Below are positions 5,649-52,326 of a stretch of DNA of 64,000 nucleotides, in pieces (within the stretch, counting starts at the first letter, position 1; each line of letters begins with the position of its first letter). The stretch covers positions 2,596-66,595 of the forward strand of contig DASC01000135.1 of NCBI GenBank assembly GCA_002503595.1, written 5' to 3'. A program made the translations under genes and the position numbers. The stretch comes from Candidatus Methanogaster sp. UBA203 (GTDB lineage: Archaea > Halobacteriota > Methanosarcinia > Methanosarcinales > Methanogasteraceae). The notes under the pieces were generated by a model. The model had not been told where the DNA came from. It was given only the letters and a program-made list of their open reading frames with translations, and did no database searches.

Positions 5649-7562
5649 ATGAGCATGTCCGGGTGGCGTAAAGTAGGTGATAAGATGGAATTCGCGAAGT
5701 TTGGTGGCGAGAACAGAATCATTAAAATCGTATCCACCATCGCTTTTATTTTTATCGCAATATCTTTAGATATAATTGCGAAAACTTCTCCAACTGTTGG
5801 CTACGAAGTATCAATTTATAACGCCTACCCCTCCTACTTTTGGTTTTTAGTTATAGCTAGTATTGCTTGTGGCATTGGGATACTGTTGTACCAGGCTTTT
5901 GCTCAAGAAAAATCCCGATGGTGGGTTCTTGGACTTGTGATAATTATCTTAGTCAACACCATTTTTCTGCTCATGCCTGAGTTTAGAGGGTATTCCTTCT
6001 ATGCGCGAGGGGAGGACACACTCACACACGCCGGATACATCAGAGATATTCTAAATACTGGGCATGTAGGTGAAAGCAATTACTATCCAATCGAGCACAT
6101 ATTGGGTACAAACTTAATCCAAGTATCTGGAATATCGCTAGAAGATGTTTCTGCTCTATTTTTCGTCCTTTTTTCTGGAATGTATATTATTACTATATAT
6201 CCTTTGGCCAAAAGCACTAGTAAGCACTCGGGTCAAGTTCTATTAATAGTTGCTTTCGCCTCACCTTTAATATACAGTTTTTTTCATGTAAACATTTCTC
6301 CCAATATTTTTTCTTTGTTTATGCTACCATGTTTGTTGTATTTTTATCATAAAAGAGAGTTAATCCCATCAAATCGCATGGAAAATACTATTGCGGTGCT
6401 TATATTGGCGTTTTGCATTGTTTTTTTCCATGCCGTTACCACACTCTTCACCATAATTGTTTTTTTTGTATTTGGGCTTGCTTATGCTCTGTACTCCAAT
6501 TTTATTGTCCGCAGACTATCTGAGCATAGGCAATATGGAATTGTCGGTAAGAATTTTCTTAGAATAACTTTTATCCTGTTTATAGCTTTTTTCATGTGGT
6601 ATTTCTCGTACTCATCTATCTGCAATAGTTTCAGAAGAGTTGCCGACTGGTTAATCTATCAGATTGGCACTCCTTTGTTCGATGCACAACTTGAAACATT
6701 GAGAGAAACTGGACCTACATGGTCTCAAACTTTTGAACTTTTTGTGAATAGGTATGGCGCTATTTTTTTATTGTTGCTACTTTCGAGTATATGTTGTATA
6801 TATGTGATTAGGAAAAGTTTGTCAAAAGCACATAATATAGGACCCATGATGTTTACATACGCAATTCAATTCACGATTGCTCTTTTCATTAGTGTTATAA
6901 TGCTATTTGGTTATTTTTTCGAATATAATCCCGTCAGAGTTTTTAGGCTTCCTTTACTAATGGGTACAATTCTTAGTGGGTTGGTGGTTTATGATTTCGT
7001 TAGCGGATATACTAGGAAGAAGTCTAATAAGAGAAACAAGTTGCGCCAAAGGTTATTCATAATAGTAATTTGGATGACCATAATGGTCATGGTTACGCTA
7101 AGTTTTGGGAGTGTTTATAATTCACCGAGAGTGTATCTGCCAAATTCTCAGACCACCTCAATGGACCTAGTTGGCACAGAATGGCTGGATAAATCGAAAA
7201 GTCCTGATATTCGCATAATTGTTAGTCGATGGTCAGCACATTCTCTGCACCGATTCGAAGATTATAATTTTGGAATAGATTCCTCCCCTACCGTCAAAGT
7301 AGGAATAATCCACGAATATCTTCCTTCGCACTTTGGTTATGGTGGGAATAGCTCAGTTGTAGAATCTTTAGGTTTTCGAGATATGTATGTAGTCATCTTC
7401 CAAGTAGATAAAGTAATAACGATGTTTGTCCCAGAGAATGTTGGATCAAATATAGATCAGTGGACGGAAGAAGATTTTGCCAAGCTAAAAGTCGATCCTA
7501 CTGCAGTACATGTCTATGCTAATGGTGAATTTGATGTGTGGGGGGTATATGGCGAATTTTGA
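5649..7562 (+). CDS. Large polytopic membrane protein with a soluble C-terminal domain (glycan polymerase or GT-C-like role inferred from context only)
   Basis: 637 aa. More than 10 hydrophobic segments are followed by a hydrophilic tail of about 170 aa. No AglB WWDYG motif was seen. It lies within the glycosyltransferase cluster. Confidence 0.6.
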   Translation: MSMSGWRKVGDKMEFAKFGGENRIIKIVSTIAFIFIAISLDIIAKTSPTVGYEVSIYNAYPSYFWFLVIASIACGIGILLYQAFAQEKSRWWVLGLVIIILVNTIFLLMPEFRGYSFYARGEDTLTHAGYIRDILNTGHVGESNYYPIEHILGTNLIQVSGISLEDVSALFFVLFSGMYIITIYPLAKSTSKHSGQVLLIVAFASPLIYSFFHVNISPNIFSLFMLPCLLYFYHKRELIPSNRMENTIAVLILAFCIVFFHAVTTLFTIIVFFVFGLAYALYSNFIVRRLSEHRQYGIVGKNFLRITFILFIAFFMWYFSYSSICNSFRRVADWLIYQIGTPLFDAQLETLRETGPTWSQTFELFVNRYGAIFLLLLLSSICCIYVIRKSLSKAHNIGPMMFTYAIQFTIALFISVIMLFGYFFEYNPVRVFRLPLLMGTILSGLVVYDFVSGYTRKKSNKRNKLRQRLFIIVIWMTIMVMVTLSFGSVYNSPRVYLPNSQTTSMDLVGTEWLDKSKSPDIRIIVSRWSAHSLHRFEDYNFGIDSSPTVKVGIIHEYLPSHFGYGGNSSVVESLGFRDMYVVIFQVDKVITMFVPENVGSNIDQWTEEDFAKLKVDPTAVHVYANGEFDVWGVYGEF

Positions 7563-20072: not shown

Positions 20073-20144
20073 AGCCTCGGGCGGGAATTGAACCCGCGAC
20101 CTCGTCCTTACCAAGGACGCGCTATACCGCTAAGCCACCGAGGC
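20073..20144 (-). tRNA. tRNA-Thr (anticodon GGU)
   Basis: Hand-folded cloverleaf: acceptor GCCTCGG/CCGAGGC, anticodon stem CGTCC/GGACG with loop TTGGTAA, T-arm GCGGG-TTCAATT-CCCGC, discriminator T. No encoded CCA. Confidence 0.85.
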
Positions 20145-43883: not shown

Positions 43884-45035
43884 ATGCGAGTCTCAGACAC
43901 GGTGCAGAGTGTGCCGCCGTCTGGCATCCGCAGGTTCTTTGATCTGGCAAACGAACTTGAGGATGTGATCTCGCTCGGCGTTGGCGAACCCGATTTTGTG
44001 ACTCCGTGGCATATCAGGGAGTCGTGCATCCACGCGCTCGAGCAGGGACACACCTCGTACACATCCAATCAGGGACTCCCTGAGTTGCGAGAAGAGATCG
44101 CGGACACGTTCCTGCGGGATCACTCACTCCACTACGATCCGAACGAGGAGATACTGATCACGACCGGGGTGAGCGAGGGAATAGACCTTGCGATGCGTGC
44201 GATTCTGAATCGTGGCGAGGAGGTCATCATCTCTGAGCCGTGCTACGTCTCTTACACCCCGACCGTGATCTTTGCCGGCGGAGTTCCGGTTACGGTTGCC
44301 ACAGGCATCGAGAACGATTTCAAGGTTACTGCAGAGCGGATAGAGGATGCGGTAACGGAAAAGACGCGTGCAATCATGATCAATTACCCGAATAACCCGA
44401 CAGGCGCAACAATGGAAAAGAAGGATCTCGAAGAGATTGCAGATGTTGCAACCGAGTACGATCTGATAGTCATCTCTGACGAGATCTACGATAAACTCAC
44501 TTACGACGGAAAACATACCTGTTTCTCATCCTTAAACGGAATGATTGCGAACACGGTTCTGTTCAATGGGTTTTCAAAGTCTCATGCGATGACCGGACTT
44601 CGGGTCGGATACGCGCTTGGAAGCAGTGACATCATCGGAGCGATGACGAAGATACACCAGTACACTATGCTCTGCGCCCCGATCACCTCGCAGATAGCTG
44701 CAATCGATGCGCTTCGGAACGGGAGGGCGGAGATGGAGCGGATGGTGCGGGAGTACGACCGCAGGAGACATCTGATCATCAGCGGATTTAACAAGATCGG
44801 GATTGACTGTTTCTGGGGAAAAGGAGCGTTCTATGCGTTCCCATCGATTGCGGGCACGGGGATGACCGCGGATGAATTTGCAGAGCGGCTGATGCTTGAG
44901 AAGCGGGTGGCTGTCGTTCCAGGGAATGTGTTCGGGGACTGTGGTAGTGGATTTCTGCGGTGCTCGTATGCTGCATCGAGGGATGACATAAAGGAGGCAC
45001 TTCTAAGGATCGGGGAGTTTGTTGAGTCGATTTAA
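43884..45035 (+). CDS. Class I/II pyridoxal-phosphate aminotransferase (aspartate/aromatic type)
   Basis: PPSGIRRFFDLA, NYPNNPTG and the PLP lysine motif NGFSKSHAMTGLRVGY are present. The ATG at 43884, just after the lrp stop, is preferred. Confidence 0.85.
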   Translation: MRVSDTVQSVPPSGIRRFFDLANELEDVISLGVGEPDFVTPWHIRESCIHALEQGHTSYTSNQGLPELREEIADTFLRDHSLHYDPNEEILITTGVSEGIDLAMRAILNRGEEVIISEPCYVSYTPTVIFAGGVPVTVATGIENDFKVTAERIEDAVTEKTRAIMINYPNNPTGATMEKKDLEEIADVATEYDLIVISDEIYDKLTYDGKHTCFSSLNGMIANTVLFNGFSKSHAMTGLRVGYALGSSDIIGAMTKIHQYTMLCAPITSQIAAIDALRNGRAEMERMVREYDRRRHLIISGFNKIGIDCFWGKGAFYAFPSIAGTGMTADEFAERLMLEKRVAVVPGNVFGDCGSGFLRCSYAASRDDIKEALLRIGEFVESI

Positions 45036-45166
45036 GTGTTGTAGTGTAATATAACGTGCCATAAACTTCGAGTTCGCGCCGATGCGTTAGCATCACCTCA
45101 AACTTTATCATAACTACTGCCATAGAGTGAAGTATCAATCCGGTTAACAGATACAAGGTGAAAAAT

Positions 45167-45358
45167 ATGAGAGCGCTTCAGAAACAGTATGTTGTGGATG
45201 GGAAGGGACAAAAAACAGCAGTGATCCTTTCGATTGAGGAGTATGAGGAACTTGTAGAAGACCTCCACGACCTATCGATCATCGCCGAACGCCGGGATGA
45301 GCCCACAATAACATTCGAAGATGTCAAGAAAGGGCTGAAAGAAGATGGGCTCTTATGA
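45167..45358 (+). CDS. Phd/YefM-type antitoxin
   Basis: GKGQKTAVILSIEEYEELVEDLHDLSIIAERRDEP. GGTG lies 7 nt upstream of the ATG. It overlaps the toxin start by 14 nt. Confidence 0.7.
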   Translation: MRALQKQYVVDGKGQKTAVILSIEEYEELVEDLHDLSIIAERRDEPTITFEDVKKGLKEDGLL

Positions 45359-45608
45359 AATTCGATGGAAGAGTTCGGCAGCACGAGATTTACACAGCAT
45401 TGACCCGCAACAAGTCCCGCGGATTATAAAAGCCATCGAATCGCTTGCGGACAACCCGTTTCCTTCGCAGCACCGTAAGATTCGGGGGTCAGTTCGGGAT
45501 TACAGGATTCGGATCGGAGATTATAGAGTTATCTATCAGGTGCATACCAGACCCGGAATTGTCATCATTTATCATATCCGGCATCGCAGACATGCGTATC
45601 GCAGGTGA
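45345..45608 (+). CDS. relE: RelE/ParE-family toxin
   Basis: 87 aa. YEIRWKSSAARDL..IRGSVRDYRIRIGDYRVIYQV is the RelE/ParE signature. Confidence 0.8.
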   Translation: MGSYEIRWKSSAARDLHSIDPQQVPRIIKAIESLADNPFPSQHRKIRGSVRDYRIRIGDYRVIYQVHTRPGIVIIYHIRHRRHAYRR

Positions 45609-45703
45609 TTGAGATGGTTGAAATGCTCGCCCTGCGAATGTGGCTGGGGGTATAAATAGGAATATCTCCTCGGAACCGGTTTTAGTTCCCCCAATGAGGA
45701 GAA

Positions 45704-46777
45704 CTATCCCGAAAAATACGAATTCACATTCTTATAATCGAACTCATCATCCGTAAGCGCGTTTCTTATGAAATTAAACAGCTTCGCCCTGACCTCGCGG
45801 TCAAGATTCGGATACCACACAGGGCTTGCCACCACGAGTCCGCGAAACGCGTAGAAGAGCTGGATAACCTTCAAGACATCCCAGTCTCCTGTTTCTTCAA
45901 GATAATGCTCCATGAACCGGTCGTACATCCTTTTGAAGTCGTGATCCAGCCGACCGTGCTCCTGAAGCGAGTAAAAGATGTAATTGGTGGTCATGCACGA
46001 TAGATCGTCTGCTGCCTCGCCCCATTCACCGCGGCTCCGGTCGAGCACAGTAAAGTCAGTTCCTTCCCGAAACATCACGTTCCACGGGTGGAAATCTCCG
46101 TGAACCATACACAACCGGTCTGTTCTCGATTTTATCTTCCATCTCCAGTCGACACATGATCTCTCGATCTCGGCAAGTTCCTTTCCTGTGATAAAGTCGA
46201 GATCGTCAGGATAACTGTCCATCAAGCCCATGATGCACTCGCCATGCCCGACAAGGTCCCTGATCCGCCTTACGTAGAGTTCCCGGCTATCATGCTTCCG
46301 GGCGTGAATATCAGCCAGATAACCTGATAATGCACTTGCCCGCTCTACATCCAGTTCGGTTGCACCATTTGAGCGGATCCGCTCAAGATCAAGGAAATAT
46401 TCGACACCCTCGACCTCCTCCATCAGCAGGAAATACTCCTCTGCATCGCCTGCCGACTTGAGTCTGCCATCGTGCGTGAAATAGCCGCAATCGATCGACC
46501 GCACGTGCTCTGGCAGTCTGTTAAATGTTGCGTGCTGCCAGATCAGGATCTGCGCCCGGTCAGAGAAATGATCGTGACCGAACCCGCCTCCGGTCCGCAT
46601 GGACGAGAGGACTGCGGATTTGGCTTCGCCATCTGCCAGGAATCTGATGAGGAGTGGTTTACCGTATCCGAACTCTTTGAGTCCTTCCTCGGTCTCGCCG
46701 AGTTTTCCTGTGCCTGTTACTACGATCTCCTTTTTGTACACCTGTTTCAGGTACTCGGCGATGTCGTCTGGTTTCAT
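45704..46777 (-). CDS. Aminoglycoside-phosphotransferase-like (APH/ChoK family) kinase
   Basis: 357 aa. The catalytic loop is MVHGDFHPWNVMF and the metal-binding motif is VLDRSRGEWG. Confidence 0.7.
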   Translation of the reverse strand: MKPDDIAEYLKQVYKKEIVVTGTGKLGETEEGLKEFGYGKPLLIRFLADGEAKSAVLSSMRTGGGFGHDHFSDRAQILIWQHATFNRLPEHVRSIDCGYFTHDGRLKSAGDAEEYFLLMEEVEGVEYFLDLERIRSNGATELDVERASALSGYLADIHARKHDSRELYVRRIRDLVGHGECIMGLMDSYPDDLDFITGKELAEIERSCVDWRWKIKSRTDRLCMVHGDFHPWNVMFREGTDFTVLDRSRGEWGEAADDLSCMTTNYIFYSLQEHGRLDHDFKRMYDRFMEHYLEETGDWDVLKVIQLFYAFRGLVVASPVWYPNLDREVRAKLFNFIRNALTDDEFDYKNVNSYFSG

Positions 46778-46904
46778 GATGTTTATCTCCTTTTATAACC
46801 CTGATGTAACATCTTTTGCGTAAGTTATAACTGTTATGACATTTCAAGCCGGAAAATACTCCCATTGTAACCAATTTGACGAACTTTAAACCATAAATGA
46901 TGGT

Positions 46905-47747
46905 TCAATCTATTAACCTTCCCCTTTCGGTGGATCTCTCTGGATTCCACCATTCTTTCTCTAGATGATCCTTGACCAGATTGAATAACTCCCATACAAG
47001 CTGTGCATCAATCGGATTCAATGGTTTCTGCTTATGTTTCTGTCTTCTCAAGACAAATATCTCATCGATCTGCGTATGCTTTGGATTTACGCTCTTGTCC
47101 AGCGCATTCGCCTCTGTAACAACAACATATAATGAATAAGGGTTTCCTCTCTTTAACCGTTCCGCCGCATAAGCAGCCCCATCCAGCATCGTCTTATCGA
47201 GATATGTCTTGCATTCTATCGCTACGATCGGAACTAAAATATTTTTTTGGATGGTGGCATGCATCTCCCTATCCGATGAAAATATGCAGAAAATCTCTTT
47301 GCCTATGGCAAAATCCTGATCCTTGACCTTGATGTCGACTCCCGGATTTCTCTCCCATTCGTCGATGTTCTTTGGAGAGAAACTCATATCAACATAAGCT
47401 TTCCCAGGACCCAATGTCAATTGCTTACCACTCAAAATTGGCAGTCCCTCAAACAAAAAATACAAAAACTCCTCTATAACCGTTGAATGCAATTTTGATT
47501 GGGATGTGAACCCATATCTGTTACCCCGCTCTTTTTTAAAGTGGGATTGATCGATAAAGTCCTTATATTCGTTTAAAAACTTCACTCTATCAAATATATA
47601 CTTTTTGGAAGTGCCAGTAATGGATTCATTATGCCCTTTCCATTCATCATACTTCTCTTTGATCTCGCGAAGTAATTTGATATTCTCTTTGACCTTTTCA
47701 TCCTTCAATTTCCGCTCTATATTGTTCCCATGTATGAATGGTAGCAT
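46905..47747 (-). CDS. Putative type II restriction endonuclease (PD-(D/E)xK candidate)
   Basis: 280 aa. It lies immediately downstream of the methyltransferase on the same strand, with a 4-nt gap. The candidate catalytic pattern is VKDQDF ... VAIECK. The gene is AT-rich. Confidence 0.55.
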   Translation of the reverse strand: MLPFIHGNNIERKLKDEKVKENIKLLREIKEKYDEWKGHNESITGTSKKYIFDRVKFLNEYKDFIDQSHFKKERGNRYGFTSQSKLHSTVIEEFLYFLFEGLPILSGKQLTLGPGKAYVDMSFSPKNIDEWERNPGVDIKVKDQDFAIGKEIFCIFSSDREMHATIQKNILVPIVAIECKTYLDKTMLDGAAYAAERLKRGNPYSLYVVVTEANALDKSVNPKHTQIDEIFVLRRQKHKQKPLNPIDAQLVWELFNLVKDHLEKEWWNPERSTERGRLID

Positions 47748-47751
47748 TTCA

Positions 47752-48705
47752 TCACCCCAGAAAGTCTTGCAGCCTTGATTGCTTCCTATATTCTTTGATT
47801 CTCTCTTCTGCGGTATTACAATAATTTTCAGATATATCGATCCCTATGTGCCTCCGATTTAATTTTTCCGCAACCAGCGTCGTCGTCCCAACGCCATTGA
47901 ACGGGTCTAAAACGATATCATCTACATAACTGAATAATCTCATCAAACGATAAGGTATCTCTTCTGGAAACATTGCCGGATGATCATACATTTTCATGTT
48001 TCTCTCAGGAGCAACGTCCCACTTTGCATATACCCATTTCTTAAATTCATCACCTGTAATATCTATTTTATCCGCATCCCCTGTCTTTTTATGCGAGTCT
48101 TTGCAGAATATCTCAATAAATTCCCAAGTGTATTTCAAATACGGCATACTCGGACTTTTCCAGCTTCCCCACGCCGTGTATTTGCAGTTATAGTTGTGCT
48201 TATCCCATAGTATTTCCCCTTTCCAAAGCAGCCCCAAAGCTGATAATTGGTTTGAGATGATGTGGTGGGTCGGTATATAATCAGAAAACATTGGTTGAAC
48301 ATTGACACAGATACGACCAGCAGGCTTTAAAATTCTAAAACATTCTGCCCATATCCTATTCAATTTTGAAAAATAGTGAGACCAGTGGATGGCATCCTGA
48401 CCTTCATCCTCTTCATACTCCAAACCAAAATTATAGGGCGGCGATGTGATGAGTATATCGATAGAATTATCGGGTATTTCTTTCAATATATTTTCGCTGT
48501 CTCCACAGTGGACCTTATTGACCCATCTGGAAATATCGGCTTCTTCAATTTCTGTTTTAGTACCGATTTTGTATTTAGTCCCCTCTCTACGTATTTCTTT
48601 ATCCTTTCGATCTTTTACTTTCCGTTCTCTACTCAACAACTTTGCATCCGGATATTCCCCCGATCCGTTCGTTTTCTTGGCGGTTGTAGATTGGAGTTGC
48701 TGCAT
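47752..48705 (-). CDS. DNA methyltransferase, N4-cytosine/N6-adenine beta class
   Basis: Motif IV ILITSPPYNF precedes motif I DPFNGVGTTTLVAEKLNRRHIGIDI, which is the beta-class permutation. SPPY favours m4C but does not exclude m6A. Confidence 0.85.
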   Translation of the reverse strand: MQQLQSTTAKKTNGSGEYPDAKLLSRERKVKDRKDKEIRREGTKYKIGTKTEIEEADISRWVNKVHCGDSENILKEIPDNSIDILITSPPYNFGLEYEEDEGQDAIHWSHYFSKLNRIWAECFRILKPAGRICVNVQPMFSDYIPTHHIISNQLSALGLLWKGEILWDKHNYNCKYTAWGSWKSPSMPYLKYTWEFIEIFCKDSHKKTGDADKIDITGDEFKKWVYAKWDVAPERNMKMYDHPAMFPEEIPYRLMRLFSYVDDIVLDPFNGVGTTTLVAEKLNRRHIGIDISENYCNTAEERIKEYRKQSRLQDFLG

Positions 48706-48885
48706 AGGTATGACATCGAGTGTAATGATTAATAAACCCTCCAGAATATTATATGCTCACAAGAGTTCGCACCTCAAAACCGCACCATCAGCGCGCCCAA
48801 CCCGACTGCGGCAACTACGTACCCGCCACGCCCATCGACCTGCTTGCCTGATCGGAGGGCGCGACGGATGATTTATCATTTATCT

Positions 48886-49635
48886 TCACAGCCCCGCAAT
48901 CGCGCTCTCTGTCCAGATCGTGAGCCTGCCTGCGTGTGTGCCAGGTGCGAGCATTTCCGCATTCAACCGGTCGCACATCACGACATCCACGCCAGAGAGG
49001 TTGCGCGCACCCTTCTCGATGCCGCTGTAATCGGATGTCACGATCAGGATGCTCTTTGGCTTCTTGTATTTTCTGCCACGAAGCTTCCCTCTGCCTGCCC
49101 TGATATGCTTCCCGGTCTTGGCACGGATCACGTCCTGCCAGAGGTTGATCGCCTGCAAAACCTCGCAAACGTCCTTGGTCTTCGCCAGACTCCCAAACGC
49201 ATCCTCAAGAACGATCGGAAGACCGAGATCTGCCTCGAACCTGTGTCCTCTGTTAGTAACGAGGTCAGGATTGGTTGTGGCTGCAATCGCTGACCTGATC
49301 GCAAACCTTCGCTCCTTCCTGTTGATCTTCTCGCTCCAGTCCTTCTCTGCCTTTGGTGGATGCGCTTTTCTGCCGCCCTTTGCCTGCGGAACCCGTGCAG
49401 CGCGGTTTGAGTTCACAAGTCGTGGAATCTGCGCTATCCCCCTGCCTGATCCAAGCGAGCGCGCCGATGTCCTCATGCCCGCGTACGCTGTTACGCCATA
49501 CGGCTGCCTGCGGTTTGCCTGCGCGGCAAGGACTGCTTTTTTGATGAGGTCCGGGCGGTAGGCTTCGGAAAATACATCTGGGAGATCGATTTCACGTAAA
49601 ACGTCTCCGGATAAACTTAAAACATTGGTTTTCAT
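48886..49635 (-). CDS. rpl4: 50S ribosomal protein uL4
   Basis: 249 aa. [27 protein letters not shown] and [21 protein letters not shown] are present. It starts 6 nt after rpl3. Confidence 0.92.
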
Positions 49636-49640
49636 CTAAA

Positions 49641-50597
49641 TCACCCCTGATGCGATTCTTTGCTGATATAATTGATCGCAGGAGCGTCCAACGGCGGCTT
49701 GCCGCGTATGGGCGGTCTCATCCGGATCAATCTCTTTGACGGACCAGGAACGCTTCCGCGAATCATCACGTACCCGTTTTTGACGATGCCGTAGTTTATG
49801 AATCCGCCATCCGGAGTCACTTCAGTTCCGTCAGATCCGATCTTTAAGATCCGTTTGTTAAATTCGGTGCGCTGGTAGTACCCGGTCTGCCCCATCAGCG
49901 GCACAGTTCTCCGCACATAATGCGGGGTCCATGGACCAAGGTTTCCGATGTGCCGCTTCTTTCCGGTGCGGCTATGCTTGCCCTTCTGCAGCTGCACACC
50001 CCATCGCTTCACAGGTCCCTGCGTCCCTTTTCCGGTGGTTATCGCGGCAACATCCGCAAACTCGCCGGGAGCGAAGAGATCTGCCATCTGATACTCCTTC
50101 CCGAGAATCGATCTGCCGTACTCGAACTGCGCGGCAACGTCCCCACCAGCGATCAGCGTCTCCATCACGTCAGGCGTCTTCTTTGGAATCCCTGAAACGA
50201 GGTGCGGCATGGTCTGGACGACCGCACGGATCTCGCGCACCGCGCCCTCCTCAAGAGCGCGTTCGATGTTATCATTATCACGGTCTGCCCACACCTCTGT
50301 AATCAATTTCATCCCATAATATCCCCGGTCTGTGTAGGCACGCAGCGCAACAGCGCGCATGGCAGGAGTCTCGATGATCGTTACAGGCACCGATATCTCA
50401 ATACCCGATGTAATGCTGTTCGGACGGTCGTCGATCATCAGCACATGGGTCATTCCTGCCTTGTACCCTGCAAAATCCTGTATCTTCGGCTCTTCTCCAT
50501 CGGTCCGCCACGATCGTATCCGTGCGATCGGTTTCTTTGCTTTTTTTCTCGGGCTGAATGCAAGTGACCCTCTTCTTGGTCTGTGTATCGTTGGCAT
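49641..50597 (-). CDS. rpl3: 50S ribosomal protein uL3
   Basis: 318 aa. [27 protein letters not shown] and [14 protein letters not shown] are present. Confidence 0.92.
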
Positions 50598-50892
50598 TTT
50601 TCAAATCCTCTTTCCAGAAGCATCGCTGTATACAGTATTAATGTTAACGTTCAAAAGGGGTTTGTCCGGACTACTGTGTTGCATGGTTGTGGAAAAATCC
50701 TAAATCCTGATATGGCATCGCGCAACTTGTCAGCCCCCACGTCATCGATAGGATTATGTATGATGAACGTCTCGTAATCATGGCGAAAAGTGCTTATACG
50801 CTTCAGACACCCCATATCGTGGAGGTCTCAGTATCACCGACTCCAAAAAAACATCAGACCCACATGAAAGCGCGACCAATGGCGATAAGAAA

Positions 50893-52326
50893 TTGCAATC
50901 ACCGTATCTTGTCATAGGCAGCGGTAACATCGGGTCAGCGGTTGCCAGAGAACTTGTGAATCGGAATAAGAAGGTTGTACTGATCGACAGGGATGCTGCG
51001 AAGGTTGAAACCCTTAAGGAGCAGGAGTTTGAAGCCATCGTAGGCGATCTCAACGACCCGGGTCTGCTCGATCCGATCGATATCAAGAGCGTTGAAGTGG
51101 CGCTGATCCTGAGTTCTGACGTTTCTGCAAACGAAAACGCAATCGTTACAATAAAGCAGGCATCAGAGAGCATTCAGGTGATTGCACGTGCACCAAACAG
51201 CATCGCAAAGACCAAACTTATAGAGGCAGGGGCTGACAGCGTGATCATGCCACCAAGGGTCGTTTCCGATGCCACGCTGCGGATCCTCGACCGCGTGGAA
51301 TCTGCCAGACATGCCTCGAACGTCCTTAATATTCTACGCTCGATCGGTAACGGGAAACTTGCCATCGTGGTTCACGACAATCCGGATCCGGATGCCATGT
51401 CCAGTGCTGTTGCCCTGAAGACGATTGCTGAGAGCGTTGATATCGAATCCGAGATGCTGTACCGGGGCGAGATCGGTCACCAGGAGAACAAGGCATTCAT
51501 AAATCTCCTCCAAATCGATATGAGCAAACTCGATGAACAGAAGGCACATTCTCTTGAAGATTTCAAGAAGATTGCGCTTATCGATTGTTCGATGCCAGGG
51601 GAGAATAACCTGCTCCCGAAGGATTCTGATGTTGCTATCGTCATCGACCACCATCCTGCCGAGATGAAGGCGGTACATGCTGAGTATATAGATATACGCC
51701 CGAATTCCGGAGCTACAGCAACGATCATGACGAAATATCTCCAGGAACTTGATATTCCGATCAGCAAGGATCTTGCGACCGCGCTGTTATACGGCATCCG
51801 CACCGACACACTCGGATTCAAACGGAATGCCAATCCGACCGATCTGACTGCGGCTGCACTTCTGTATCCTCTCGCAGACCATGATATCCTAAACATGATC
51901 GAAACGCCAGCCATCTCCACAGAAACGCTGGACGTGTTCGGGGAGGCGATAAGGAACCGGAAGATCAAGGGCAGTTACCTGATCACGAATGTTGGGATCC
52001 TTCGGGATCGGGACGCGCTTGCACAGGCTGCCGACTATCTGCTGAACCTCGAGGGCATCACGACCGTCCTTGTATACGGGATCGGTGAGGACTGCATATA
52101 TCTCTCTGCAAGAAGCAACGATATCCGGCTGAATCTTGGAAAGTCGATACAGGACGCGTTCGGGGAGACCGGTTCGGCAGGAGGGCACTCAACAATGGCT
52201 GGCGCCCAGATCCCGCTCGGAGTCTTCAGCGACGCAAAAGATAGGCAGGCACTTATGAAGATCTCAGAAGAAGTGGTGATGAAACGGTTCTTTGCAGCGA
52301 TCGGCGTTGAGAATGGGGATGAATGA
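50893..52326 (+). CDS. TrkA-N (NAD-binding) domain fused to a DHH/DHHA1 phosphoesterase
   Basis: The N-terminal Rossmann motif is VIGSGNIGSAVARELV. DHH motifs are VHDNPDPDAMSS and VIDHHPA, and the DHHA1 motif is GGHSTMAG. The start is TTG as given by the track. Confidence 0.7.
   Translation: MQSPYLVIGSGNIGSAVARELVNRNKKVVLIDRDAAKVETLKEQEFEAIVGDLNDPGLLDPIDIKSVEVALILSSDVSANENAIVTIKQASESIQVIARAPNSIAKTKLIEAGADSVIMPPRVVSDATLRILDRVESARHASNVLNILRSIGNGKLAIVVHDNPDPDAMSSAVALKTIAESVDIESEMLYRGEIGHQENKAFINLLQIDMSKLDEQKAHSLEDFKKIALIDCSMPGENNLLPKDSDVAIVIDHHPAEMKAVHAEYIDIRPNSGATATIMTKYLQELDIPISKDLATALLYGIRTDTLGFKRNANPTDLTAAALLYPLADHDILNMIETPAISTETLDVFGEAIRNRKIKGSYLITNVGILRDRDALAQAADYLLNLEGITTVLVYGIGEDCIYLSARSNDIRLNLGKSIQDAFGETGSAGGHSTMAGAQIPLGVFSDAKDRQALMKISEEVVMKRFFAAIGVENGDE

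Follow-up and report, generated by a model that had tools for sequence, protein, structure and literature searches.

A restriction-modification (R-M) cassette of about 1.9 kb was very probably gained horizontally by a single species-level lineage of Candidatus Methanogaster, within the spacer between uL4 and an APH-like gene, after the ribosomal protein gene cluster had been split across the whole family. The host is a methane-oxidising ANME-2c archaeon, and the window referred to below is the entire 64 kb stretch of its DNA that was analysed. Open reading frames and Pfam matches give the minus-strand order uL3, uL4, 180 nt, methyltransferase, 4 nt, endonuclease (Table 1), in agreement with the genes, domains and both gap lengths of a preliminary description made from the sequence. 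The intact and tightly linked uL3 and uL4 of that description are confirmed, with a distance of 5 nt between the genes. The uL3 protein is 94–96% identical to those of Ca. Methanogaster relatives, and uL4 is 95–99% identical across 11 Methanogaster genomes.

Table 1. Features around the R-M cassette, in coordinates of the window.
Feature	Position	Strand	Evidence or remark
uL3 (rpl3), 318 aa	49641-50597	minus	PF00297, 2e-83
uL4 (rpl4), 249 aa, last ribosomal gene of the two-gene unit	48886-49635	minus	PF00573, 8e-44
Native 3' flank of uL4	48794-48885	minus	common to L004, L009-L013
R-M cassette, homology-defined core of 1907 bp, G+C 0.40	46868-48774	minus	blastn
Candidate archaeal TATA box TTTATTAA	48729-48736	minus	23 nt upstream of methyltransferase ATG
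Beta-class DNA methyltransferase, 317 aa	47752-48705	minus	PF01555, 4e-38
Bpu10I/BbvCI-family endonuclease, 280 aa, single gene	46905-47747	minus	PF09549 RE_Bpu10I, 1e-30
Native upstream region of APH-like gene, GGAG ribosome-binding motif	46778-46867	minus	common to L004, L010
APH-like phosphotransferase, 357 aa	45704-46777	minus	PF01636, 3e-7
RelB/ParE toxin-antitoxin pair	45158-45608	plus	PF18506 + PF05016

Base composition sets the cassette apart from its surroundings. The G+C content is 0.38–0.41 over positions 46800–48800 compared with 0.52–0.58 in the flanks, and GC3 is 0.42 and 0.46 in the two R-M genes compared with 0.62–0.64 in uL3, uL4 and the APH-like gene; both contrasts point to a foreign origin. 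The composition drop previously placed near 48770 coincides with the start of homology to other cassette copies at 48774. Of the two 60-nt counts given for it, the 36 G+C at 49381–49440 is correct, while 47581–47640 contains 20 and not 21. Such abrupt changes, at 48774–48793 and at 46868, are also what would be seen if the ribosomal locus and a foreign low-GC contig had been fused in an assembly or binning chimera. This explanation is scarcely credible, since the region is 100% identical in two independent assemblies (ENA ERZ27237536 and JGI 3300001749), all seven contigs encoding exactly this uL4 have identical neighbours, and synteny with relatives holds for both flanks, the uL4 side as well as that of the APH-like gene. 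The doubt about assembly at the junction, raised in the preliminary description, is thereby answered.

Judged from its sequence, the cassette encodes a real Type II R-M module, foreign and intact, of an ordinary mobile kind. Separate, adjacent methyltransferase and endonuclease genes on one strand are a Type II layout, and an arrangement of one endonuclease and one methyltransferase is kept in every homologous copy. By blastn, the copies in L039–L043 share 88% DNA identity over exactly 48774 to 46868, and those in L077/L078 share 89% over 48767 to 46875. The former lie beside genes for DNA ligase or GlutR, with immediate flanks common to these loci, and the latter between an ACT-domain gene and an Rce1-like gene. 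Copies this similar, with matching end points in at least two unrelated contexts, argue for mobility. The left end of the cassette probably reaches about 48793, as an 18-nt extension beyond the core agrees with the left flank in L039 and was equalled in 1 of 500 shuffles. More distant copies, with endonucleases about 69% identical, are found between hydrogenase small- and large-subunit genes (L044–L046) and between HypF and a GyrB-like gene (L072). The L072 copy has a perfect 31-bp direct repeat at both sides, which is the duplicated start of the downstream gene.

[quoted passage not shown] The present cassette resembles them as a low-GC R-M unit amid conserved host genes without integrase or transposase, and allelic substitution in particular in that sister genomes have differing cargo at the same site. 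That survey covered bacteria, whereas the present hosts are archaea (ANME and methanogen-like), and the window lacks a flanking duplication. The long target duplication of the survey is recognised by a direct repeat of more than 30 bp around the R-M unit that is single-copy in the empty site; a flanking repeat of this length is reached only by L072. In the window, the cassette is not marked by an integrase, a transposase, a terminal inverted repeat or a target-site duplication, and flanking repeats of at least 14 nt are absent. A tRNA gene or a known RNA family as the target of integration was also rejected: the sole tRNA gene of the window is at 20073–20144, and Rfam has no match in 45000–51500. 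Carriage of the cassette as cargo in an IS200/IS605 shell, between left and right subterminal hairpin ends and with or without tnpA, found no support: the window has neither tnpA nor the conserved IS right end, and the IS right-end remnant of L039 is found on the upstream side of the cassette and does not bracket it. A viral origin was rejected, with IMG/VR giving just 37%-identical homologues.

The site after uL4 is variable within the genus, and the APH-like gene is the conserved downstream neighbour. The cassette is present there in one of 12 Methanogaster species-level genomes. Five relatives (L003, L005–L008) have only 8 nt between the uL4 TAA and the ATG of the APH-like gene, and L004 and L009–L013 have other cargo after uL4. 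This sister cargo includes an IS200-like element and a metallo-beta-lactamase-fold gene that sits, in the post-uL4 spacer, exactly at the IS200-like right end; a block with a HicAB pair lies past the IS right end in L013. The sequence that precedes the APH-like gene in the window is also present in L004 and L010, which have other cargo farther upstream. On the opposite side of the APH-like gene, the RelB/ParE pair forms a second variable insert, which the window shares with L004 and L010 and which L003, L005, L007 and L008 lack (L006 was left out of this count, as its contig stops shortly after the APH-like gene). As we infer the route of entry, the cassette would have gone into a short, highly variable spacer between uL4 and the APH-like kinase gene. 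No unoccupied long spacer was recovered among the relatives, so a clean insertion and the replacement of earlier cargo, such as an IS200-like element, cannot be told apart.

The cassette might instead be old at this site, carried by the ancestor of the long-spacer genomes; the sister lineages would then have lost it afterwards or had it overwritten by cargo such as the IS200-like element. The sequence CGAATTATCC occurs in the native region upstream of the APH-like gene in L004 and L010, and the same 10-mer lies just past the right end of the core in L039; a near-identical GAATTATC is found in L077, with 7 and 18 of 500 shuffles equalling the L039 and L077 matches, respectively. Such a short motif may, however, be insertion microhomology or chance. 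In a neighbour-joining tree of uL3+uL4, the long-spacer genomes branch basally, as an old cassette would suggest, but the tree is poorly resolved and the ancestral form of the spacer, 8 nt or long, is therefore uncertain. Long residence is also at odds with a G+C content that is still strongly foreign (0.40 versus 0.52), with the presence of the cassette in a single genome and with the lack of R-M pseudogene remnants in the other spacers. Candidate remnants of the cassette left end in sister spacers were rejected, as the alignment was unconvincing. We consider an old cassette unlikely, and recent horizontal gain remains the preferred reading. As a broader proposal of low probability, the 3' ends and internal spacers of ribosomal operons in Methanogasteraceae could be preferred landing sites for compact low-GC cassettes, captured via microhomology or an IS right end and perhaps using strong ribosomal transcription, and the same turnover could have driven cluster fragmentation. 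It builds on the R-M pair, the metallo-beta-lactamase-fold gene, the HicAB block of L013 and a low-GC SDH-protease gene as observed cargo. The last of these comes from another species, where it separates uL2 from uS19 together with a small ORF.

As read from the available contigs, the ribosomal protein cluster of Methanogasteraceae is in at least three pieces: uL3-uL4, uL23...uL14 and the rest. Gene order within each fragment is that of the canonical archaeal cluster (uL3-uL4-uL23-uL2-uS19-uL22-uS3-uL29), which has been cut after uL4 and, it appears, again after uL14. The genes uL23 and uL2, which directly follow uL4 in the canonical order, are absent from the window and from L001–L018. The preliminary description had reported no rpl23 remnant behind rpl4, and tblastn searches of the 64-kb window with Methanolobus uL23, uL2, uS19, uL22, uS17, uL14, uL24, eS4 and uL5 likewise gave no match; a uS3 query gave a single weak match, which falls in a gene with a KH domain. 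The genes rpl23 and rpl2, which that description had proposed to seek elsewhere, are found in the Methanogasteraceae loci L083–L089 within a separate block, uL23-uL2-uS19-uL22-uS3-uL29-Rpp29-uS17-uL14. These loci, tied to the species of the window by NCBI taxon names and similar G+C content, do not have uL3/uL4 in the upstream sequence available (about 10 kb in L085/L086). The continuous canonical cluster is present in Methanolobus (L019) and in the ANME-2 loci L079–L082, from a genome outside Methanogasteraceae. For ribosomal proteins, gene order is not given in the supplements of the ANME comparative-genomics paper.

The R-M module had been described as taking the place of the remainder of the operon, and the cassette does sit exactly where uL23 is found in the canonical clusters of Methanolobus L019 and ANME-2 L079–L082. 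That its arrival displaced rpl23-rpl2-rps19 and caused the operon break is nonetheless very improbable. Among 16 relatives in which the site is free of the R-M pair, uL4 is never followed by uL23; in five of them the APH-like gene begins 8 nt past the uL4 stop, L014–L018 likewise lack uL23 there, and the family retains uL23...uL14 as a block of its own. As relatives free of the R-M pair also lack the uL4-uL23 junction, the split is older than the insertion, and the cassette, entering a cluster that was fragmented beforehand, replaced no ribosomal genes.

The region between uL4 and the methyltransferase combines native and imported sequence. A conserved 19-bp stem-loop lies 3' of uL4 at 48821–48869, for which RNAalifold predicts 19 pairs at -32 kcal/mol; changes in the alignment are one-sided and G-U-tolerant, and compensatory pairs are absent. 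The uL4 3' flank is invariably found immediately after uL4 in L004 and L009–L013. The idea that this conserved sequence is the left end of the IS200-like element was rejected, as blast on all loci and a scan of metagenome contigs placed it next to uL4 only (21 of 23 matches in the scan were chance 17–24-mers), and the IS200-like right end, unlike the post-uL4 motif, is multi-copy. Farther downstream, the stretch from GGTTTATTAATCATTACA to the methyltransferase ATG is identical in the window and L039–L043 and has about three changes in L077, though the cassette as a whole is 88–89% identical. The cassette thus appears to bring its own conserved promoter-like 5' region, whose promoter function we infer. 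Both the stem-loop and this 5' region bear on the read-through from a very strong promoter that the preliminary description had raised as possible, and which may or may not occur.

The methyltransferase has the motif order of the beta class, with ITSPPYNF (residues ~86–93), a motif IV of the (D/S)PP(Y/F) type, N-terminal to the AdoMet-binding motif I in DPFNGVGTT (residues ~268–276), as the preliminary description had proposed from its SPPY motif. It matches PADLOC MTase_II (2e-69), PDB 2zie (9e-34) and, at about 1e-14, the N4-cytosine methyltransferases 8s9n/8s9m. The order of SPPY before motif I (FxGxG) is common to Thermus thermophilus TTHA0409 (2zie), M.PvuII (1boo) and 8s9n/8s9m, and the last two also carry TSPPYN. 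By analogy with these enzymes, the protein would be of the N4-cytosine or N6-adenine type, with an N4-methylcytosine mark more likely. It differs in a Lys/Glu-rich N-terminal extension of ~55 aa, which is missing in the 259-aa homologue of L044. The partner methyltransferases of BbvCI and Bpu10I are C5 enzymes, whereas the window cassette has a single beta-class amino-methyltransferase and, unlike those systems, an archaeal host. The enzyme is not an orphan, as an endonuclease partner is present in every context examined.

The putative PD-(D/E)xK nuclease of the preliminary description has clear nuclease homologues. The protein aligns at full length (residues 2–278) with BbvCI R2 (6eg7; E 1e-48), compared with 7e-14 for BbvCI R1, and its Pfam match is above cut-off. 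In the 6eg7 alignment it keeps the equivalents of R2 D146, E177-C178-K179, E93, E211 and E227, with KDQDF and VAIECK aligned with D146 and E177-C178-K179; the catalytic residues of R2 have been defined by mutagenesis (PMC6326814). The domain and the intact site place it in the Bpu10I/BbvCI family. BbvCI and Bpu10I are Type IIT enzymes in which an R1+R2 heterodimer reads an asymmetric site, while no second PF09549 gene was found in the cassette or among the other ORFs of 44–54 kb. The single gene makes the endonuclease resemble the symmetric family members Bsu36I and BlpI, in which each subunit reads one half-site (PMC6326814), and not the Type IIT members.

A pair that no longer works as an R-M system, whether because the methyltransferase has been domesticated while the nuclease decays or because the nuclease is a subunit without its needed partner, has to be weighed here, given that BbvCI R2 is inactive by itself and needs R1 (PMC6326814), that there is only one endonuclease gene and that no PADLOC model matches it (NCBIfam has none either). 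Set against this are the retained catalytic residues, the existence of symmetric relatives and the two-gene layout conserved in every copy. Furthermore, dN/dS against three other copies is 0.11–0.12 for the endonuclease and 0.14 for the methyltransferase, which indicates purifying selection on both genes. Loss of function is thus quite improbable.

By analogy with its relatives, the methyltransferase would mark a short sequence wherever host DNA contains it, and this recognition site is probably a symmetric one of CTNAG type. The BbvCI-R2-like endonuclease would act as a homo-oligomer that cuts unmethylated incoming DNA, with 3-nt 5' overhangs expected. Like other R-M modules, this one could also stabilise itself through post-segregational killing. 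Within the family (PF09549; PDB 6eg7, 6maf), to which xxTNAxx/CTNAG-type sites belong, Bsu36I cuts CC|TNAGG and BlpI GC|TNAGC. The window endonuclease retains the Met equivalent to R2 Met186, a residue that in the family accompanies an unspecified central base pair, but its recognition loop reads D-K-T-M instead of E-R-N-M. Ala and His stand in place of K214 and N236, the proposed contacts to the outer bases, which makes GCTNAGC and CCTCAGC improbable as the site. Among 19 patterns examined for palindrome avoidance in 62 kb of host sequence, CTNAG and GGTNACC each had z = -2.1, and none of the xyTNAr(y)r(x) sites was clearly depleted.

By itself, the R-M module changes very little. It adds an archaeal, single-subunit relative of BbvCI/Bpu10I whose methyltransferase partner is of a different type, and its specificity may be new and of use to enzyme hunters. 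With it, one species of Ca. Methanogaster would possess a strain-specific obstacle to the uptake of DNA, which matters for studies of viruses and their hosts and for later genetic work on uncultured ANME archaea. The split cluster is more informative, as a normally very stable archaeal cluster is in at least three pieces in this ANME-2c family. It is a rare genomic change that could serve as a lineage marker, and contiguity of ribosomal protein genes should not be assumed when Methanogasteraceae genomes are binned or placed.

Re-inspection of the window bore out the gene coordinates and gaps of the preliminary description, as well as its observation that a restriction-modification (R-M) pair follows uL3 and uL4 (ORFs, Pfam matches, and a drop in G+C); its count of 21 G+C at 47581-47640 is off by one, the number being 20. 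On the plus strand beyond the APH-like gene lie a RelB/ParE pair and an aminotransferase gene. G+C is 0.38-0.41 across ~46800-48800 versus 0.52-0.58 on either side, and GC3 is 0.42 and 0.46 in the two inserted genes versus 0.62-0.64 in uL3, uL4, and the APH-like gene. The locus is identical in two independent assemblies, and the same neighbours occur in all seven contigs (7/7) encoding the window's exact uL4.

Features of the window (coordinates without prefix) and of related loci
Feature	Location	Strand	Remark
uL3	49641-50597	minus	first of six elements in order
uL4	48886-49635	minus	second, after uL3
Spacer, 180 nt	between uL4 and methyltransferase	minus	third
Methyltransferase, 317 aa	47752-48705	minus	fourth
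Endonuclease, 280 aa	46905-47747	minus	4 nt past methyltransferase
APH-like phosphotransferase gene	45704-46777	minus	sixth, past endonuclease
RelB/ParE toxin-antitoxin pair	45158-45608	plus	between APH-like and aminotransferase genes
Stem-loop, 19 bp	48821-48869	minus	directly 3′ of uL4
IS200-like element (Y1 transposase, 155 aa)	L004:10347-10820, L013:8674-9147, L010:5610-6084		Ca. Methanogaster relatives
IS200-like remnants	L017:463-620, L018:11679-11889, L039:120-166		
Low-GC insert	L083:852-2239, L084:1841-3228		between uL2 and uS19
Direct repeats, ~170 nt	L043:4470-4643, 6273-6438		flank ATPase_2/DUF234 gene

The methyltransferase gave matches to PF01555 (4e-38) and to PADLOC models for Type II methyltransferases (2e-69), and its motif order, SPPY before the FxGxG AdoMet motif, is that of the beta class. 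Among proteins of known structure it matches T. thermophilus TTHA0409 best (2zie, 9e-34), and next N4-cytosine methyltransferases with the same TSPPYN motif. In the beta class, SPPY favours N4-cytosine over N6-adenine, and we infer that N4-cytosine is the likelier target. The endonuclease matches PF09549 (1e-30) and, over its full length, BbvCI subunit R2 (6eg7, 1e-48), with a weaker match to subunit R1 (7e-14). The R2 active site comprises H145-D146...E177-C178-K179, and E93, E211, and E227 are essential (PMC6326814); the residues aligned to D146, E177-C178-K179, E93, E211, and E227 are D, E-C-K, E, E, and E. The Pfam matches, the R2 match, and these aligned catalytic residues support the earlier identification of the genes as an R-M pair. 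Compared with three other copies, both genes have a dN/dS of 0.11-0.14, indicating purifying selection. Bsu36I (CC|TNAGG) and BlpI (GC|TNAGC) are described as symmetric relatives, and a Met at the R2-186 position is reported to accompany an unspecified central base pair (PMC6326814). This Met is kept in the window endonuclease, but the loop reads D-K-T-M instead of E-R-N-M and the proposed outer-base contacts are not the same, so a symmetric CTNAG-type recognition site is plausible while its exact sequence is not readable from the protein. The module is new only in that its endonuclease, of the BbvCI/Bpu10I family, is archaeal and single-subunit and has an amino-methyltransferase as partner.

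The uL4 of the window is 95-99% identical to that of genomes labelled Ca. Methanogaster, ANME-2 cluster, or Methanosarcinales archaeon. In five of these relatives (L003, L005, L006, L007, and L008) the junction reads ...CTG TAA ATCTAAGT ATG..., the APH-like gene beginning 8 nt past the uL4 stop, with neither an R-M pair nor uL23 after uL4. Elsewhere uL4 is followed by an intact IS200-like transposase gene (PF01797, 1e-28; L004 and L013), a frameshifted one and then a metallo-beta-lactamase-fold gene (L010), a partial one at a contig end (L009), or a different sequence again (L011 and L012). More distant relatives (L014-L018, uL4 79-87% identical) likewise have no uL23 after uL4, and in L015 a Thi4 gene lies immediately 3′ of it. 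The proposal that the module replaced rpl23-rpl2-rps19 is refuted by these relatives, which lack uL23 there without having the R-M pair.

The APH-like gene is a conserved uL4 neighbour in Ca. Methanogaster, and given the 8-nt gap it is probably co-transcribed with uL3-uL4 in those five genomes. The RelB/ParE pair is also present in L004 (RelB partial) and L010 and absent from L003, L005, L007, and L008; L005 has a HicB-like ORF at its position. The IS200-like right end is sharply defined and multi-copy (...GCTATGTACAGGCTCYGTACTTAAGTSCGGGGTTTRGTGACT). The L010 metallo-beta-lactamase-fold gene is inserted exactly at this end, where L013 diverges into a block with a HicAB pair.

Endonuclease homologues at 88-92% identity were found on other contigs. 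DNA homology to five loci (L039-L043) spans exactly window positions 48774 to 46868 (1907 bp, 88%), and that to L077/L078 spans 48767 to 46875 (89%). The former copies, with common immediate flanks, adjoin DNA ligase or GlutR, the latter have an ACT-domain gene on one side and an Rce1-like gene on the other, and all have a G+C of 0.37-0.39 in hosts of ~0.50. Copies with ~69% identical endonucleases lie between NiFe hydrogenase small- and large-subunit genes (L044-L046) and between HypF and a GyrB-like gene (L072-L076). In L072, the R-M unit lies between the two copies of a perfect 31-bp direct repeat, which is a duplication of the beginning of the gene downstream. Such a repeat, and the fact that sister genomes carry different cargo at a single locus, agree with the mobile R-M systems of Furuta et al. 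(PMC2853133). The module is a mobile Type II R-M cassette of an ordinary kind.

Neither a duplication nor an inverted repeat was found at the window cassette. Its left end probably reaches ~48793, judging from an 18-nt match to the L039 flank that was equalled by 1 of 500 shuffles. It is without ~90 nt of right-end sequence common to L039 and L077. At its right junction lies a motif (CGAATTATCC in L039, GAATTATC in L077) that L004 and L010 also have in their native spacer, which hints marginally at microhomology (equalled by 7 and 18 of 500 shuffles).

Several of these contexts are themselves variable. In L039, L040, and L042 the cassette is preceded, at a distance of 72 nt, by an IS200-like remnant. 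The ATPase_2/DUF234 gene, present in L043 and L039 and absent from L041, is a second presence/absence polymorphism adjoining the cassette. The L044-L046 pair (69% identical, with a shorter methyltransferase of 259 aa) sits inside a normally tight hydrogenase operon (Oxidored_q6 and NiFeSe_Hases) in a low-GC host (~0.32). In L072-L076, 22 nt separate the R-M homologue from the 431-aa GyrB-like gene downstream, which is without the N-terminal ATPase domain. This gene is followed in L073, L075, and L076 by a HicA/HicB pair and a 60-aa GyrB C-terminal fragment, which looks like a toxin-antitoxin insertion duplicating the gene's end; L074 has neither.

The stem-loop begins ~18 nt past the uL4 stop codon and is common to seven genomes (the window, L004, and L009-L013). 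Its two G-U pairs form on the sense strand only, and a metagenome scan found the sequence next to uL4 only. No compensatory changes occur among the seven genomes, so its support is conservation and not covariation. Sister genomes have a T6 run past the stem-loop, where the window has just a T4 run, located at the cassette edge; the stem-loop may serve the uL3-uL4 transcript as a 3′-end element or terminator. Between cassette copies, a near-invariant stretch (GGTTTATTAATC...) extends up to the methyltransferase ATG and contains TTTATTAA 23 nt upstream of it, a position that fits a candidate leaderless archaeal promoter. The cassette can thus probably drive its own expression, and read-through from uL3-uL4 may also reach it.

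In Methanolobus (L019) the order is uL3-uL4-uL23-uL2-uS19-uL22-uS3... A search with Methanolobus uL2 led to a cluster named Candidatus Methanogasteraceae by NCBI, from which seven loci were taken (L083-L089). These carry a self-contained block, uL23-uL2-uS19-uL22-uS3-uL29-Rpp29-uS17-uL14, with 10 kb of unrelated genes upstream in L085 and L086 and unrelated genes past uL14 too; none of uL3, uL4, uL24, eS4, and uL5 was found in the seven loci. In contrast, the canonical run is complete, from uL3 to SecY, in an ANME-2 genome outside Methanogasteraceae (L079-L082). On this comparison of gene orders, cuts after uL4 and after uL14 are a trait of Methanogasteraceae. The low-GC insert of L083 and L084 (0.395 versus 0.53-0.55) encodes a 400-aa SDH-type serine protease (PF01972) and a 60-aa ORF, and has no PADLOC matches or flanking repeats; other members have just a 19-nt spacer there.

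In this ANME-2c family the cluster is in at least three pieces (uL3-uL4; uL23...uL14; the remainder from uL24 on), and the arrival of the R-M pair, in one lineage, postdates the split. The R-M module is less unusual than two other features, namely that the cluster is fragmented in Methanogasteraceae and that small cassettes turn over at its edges.
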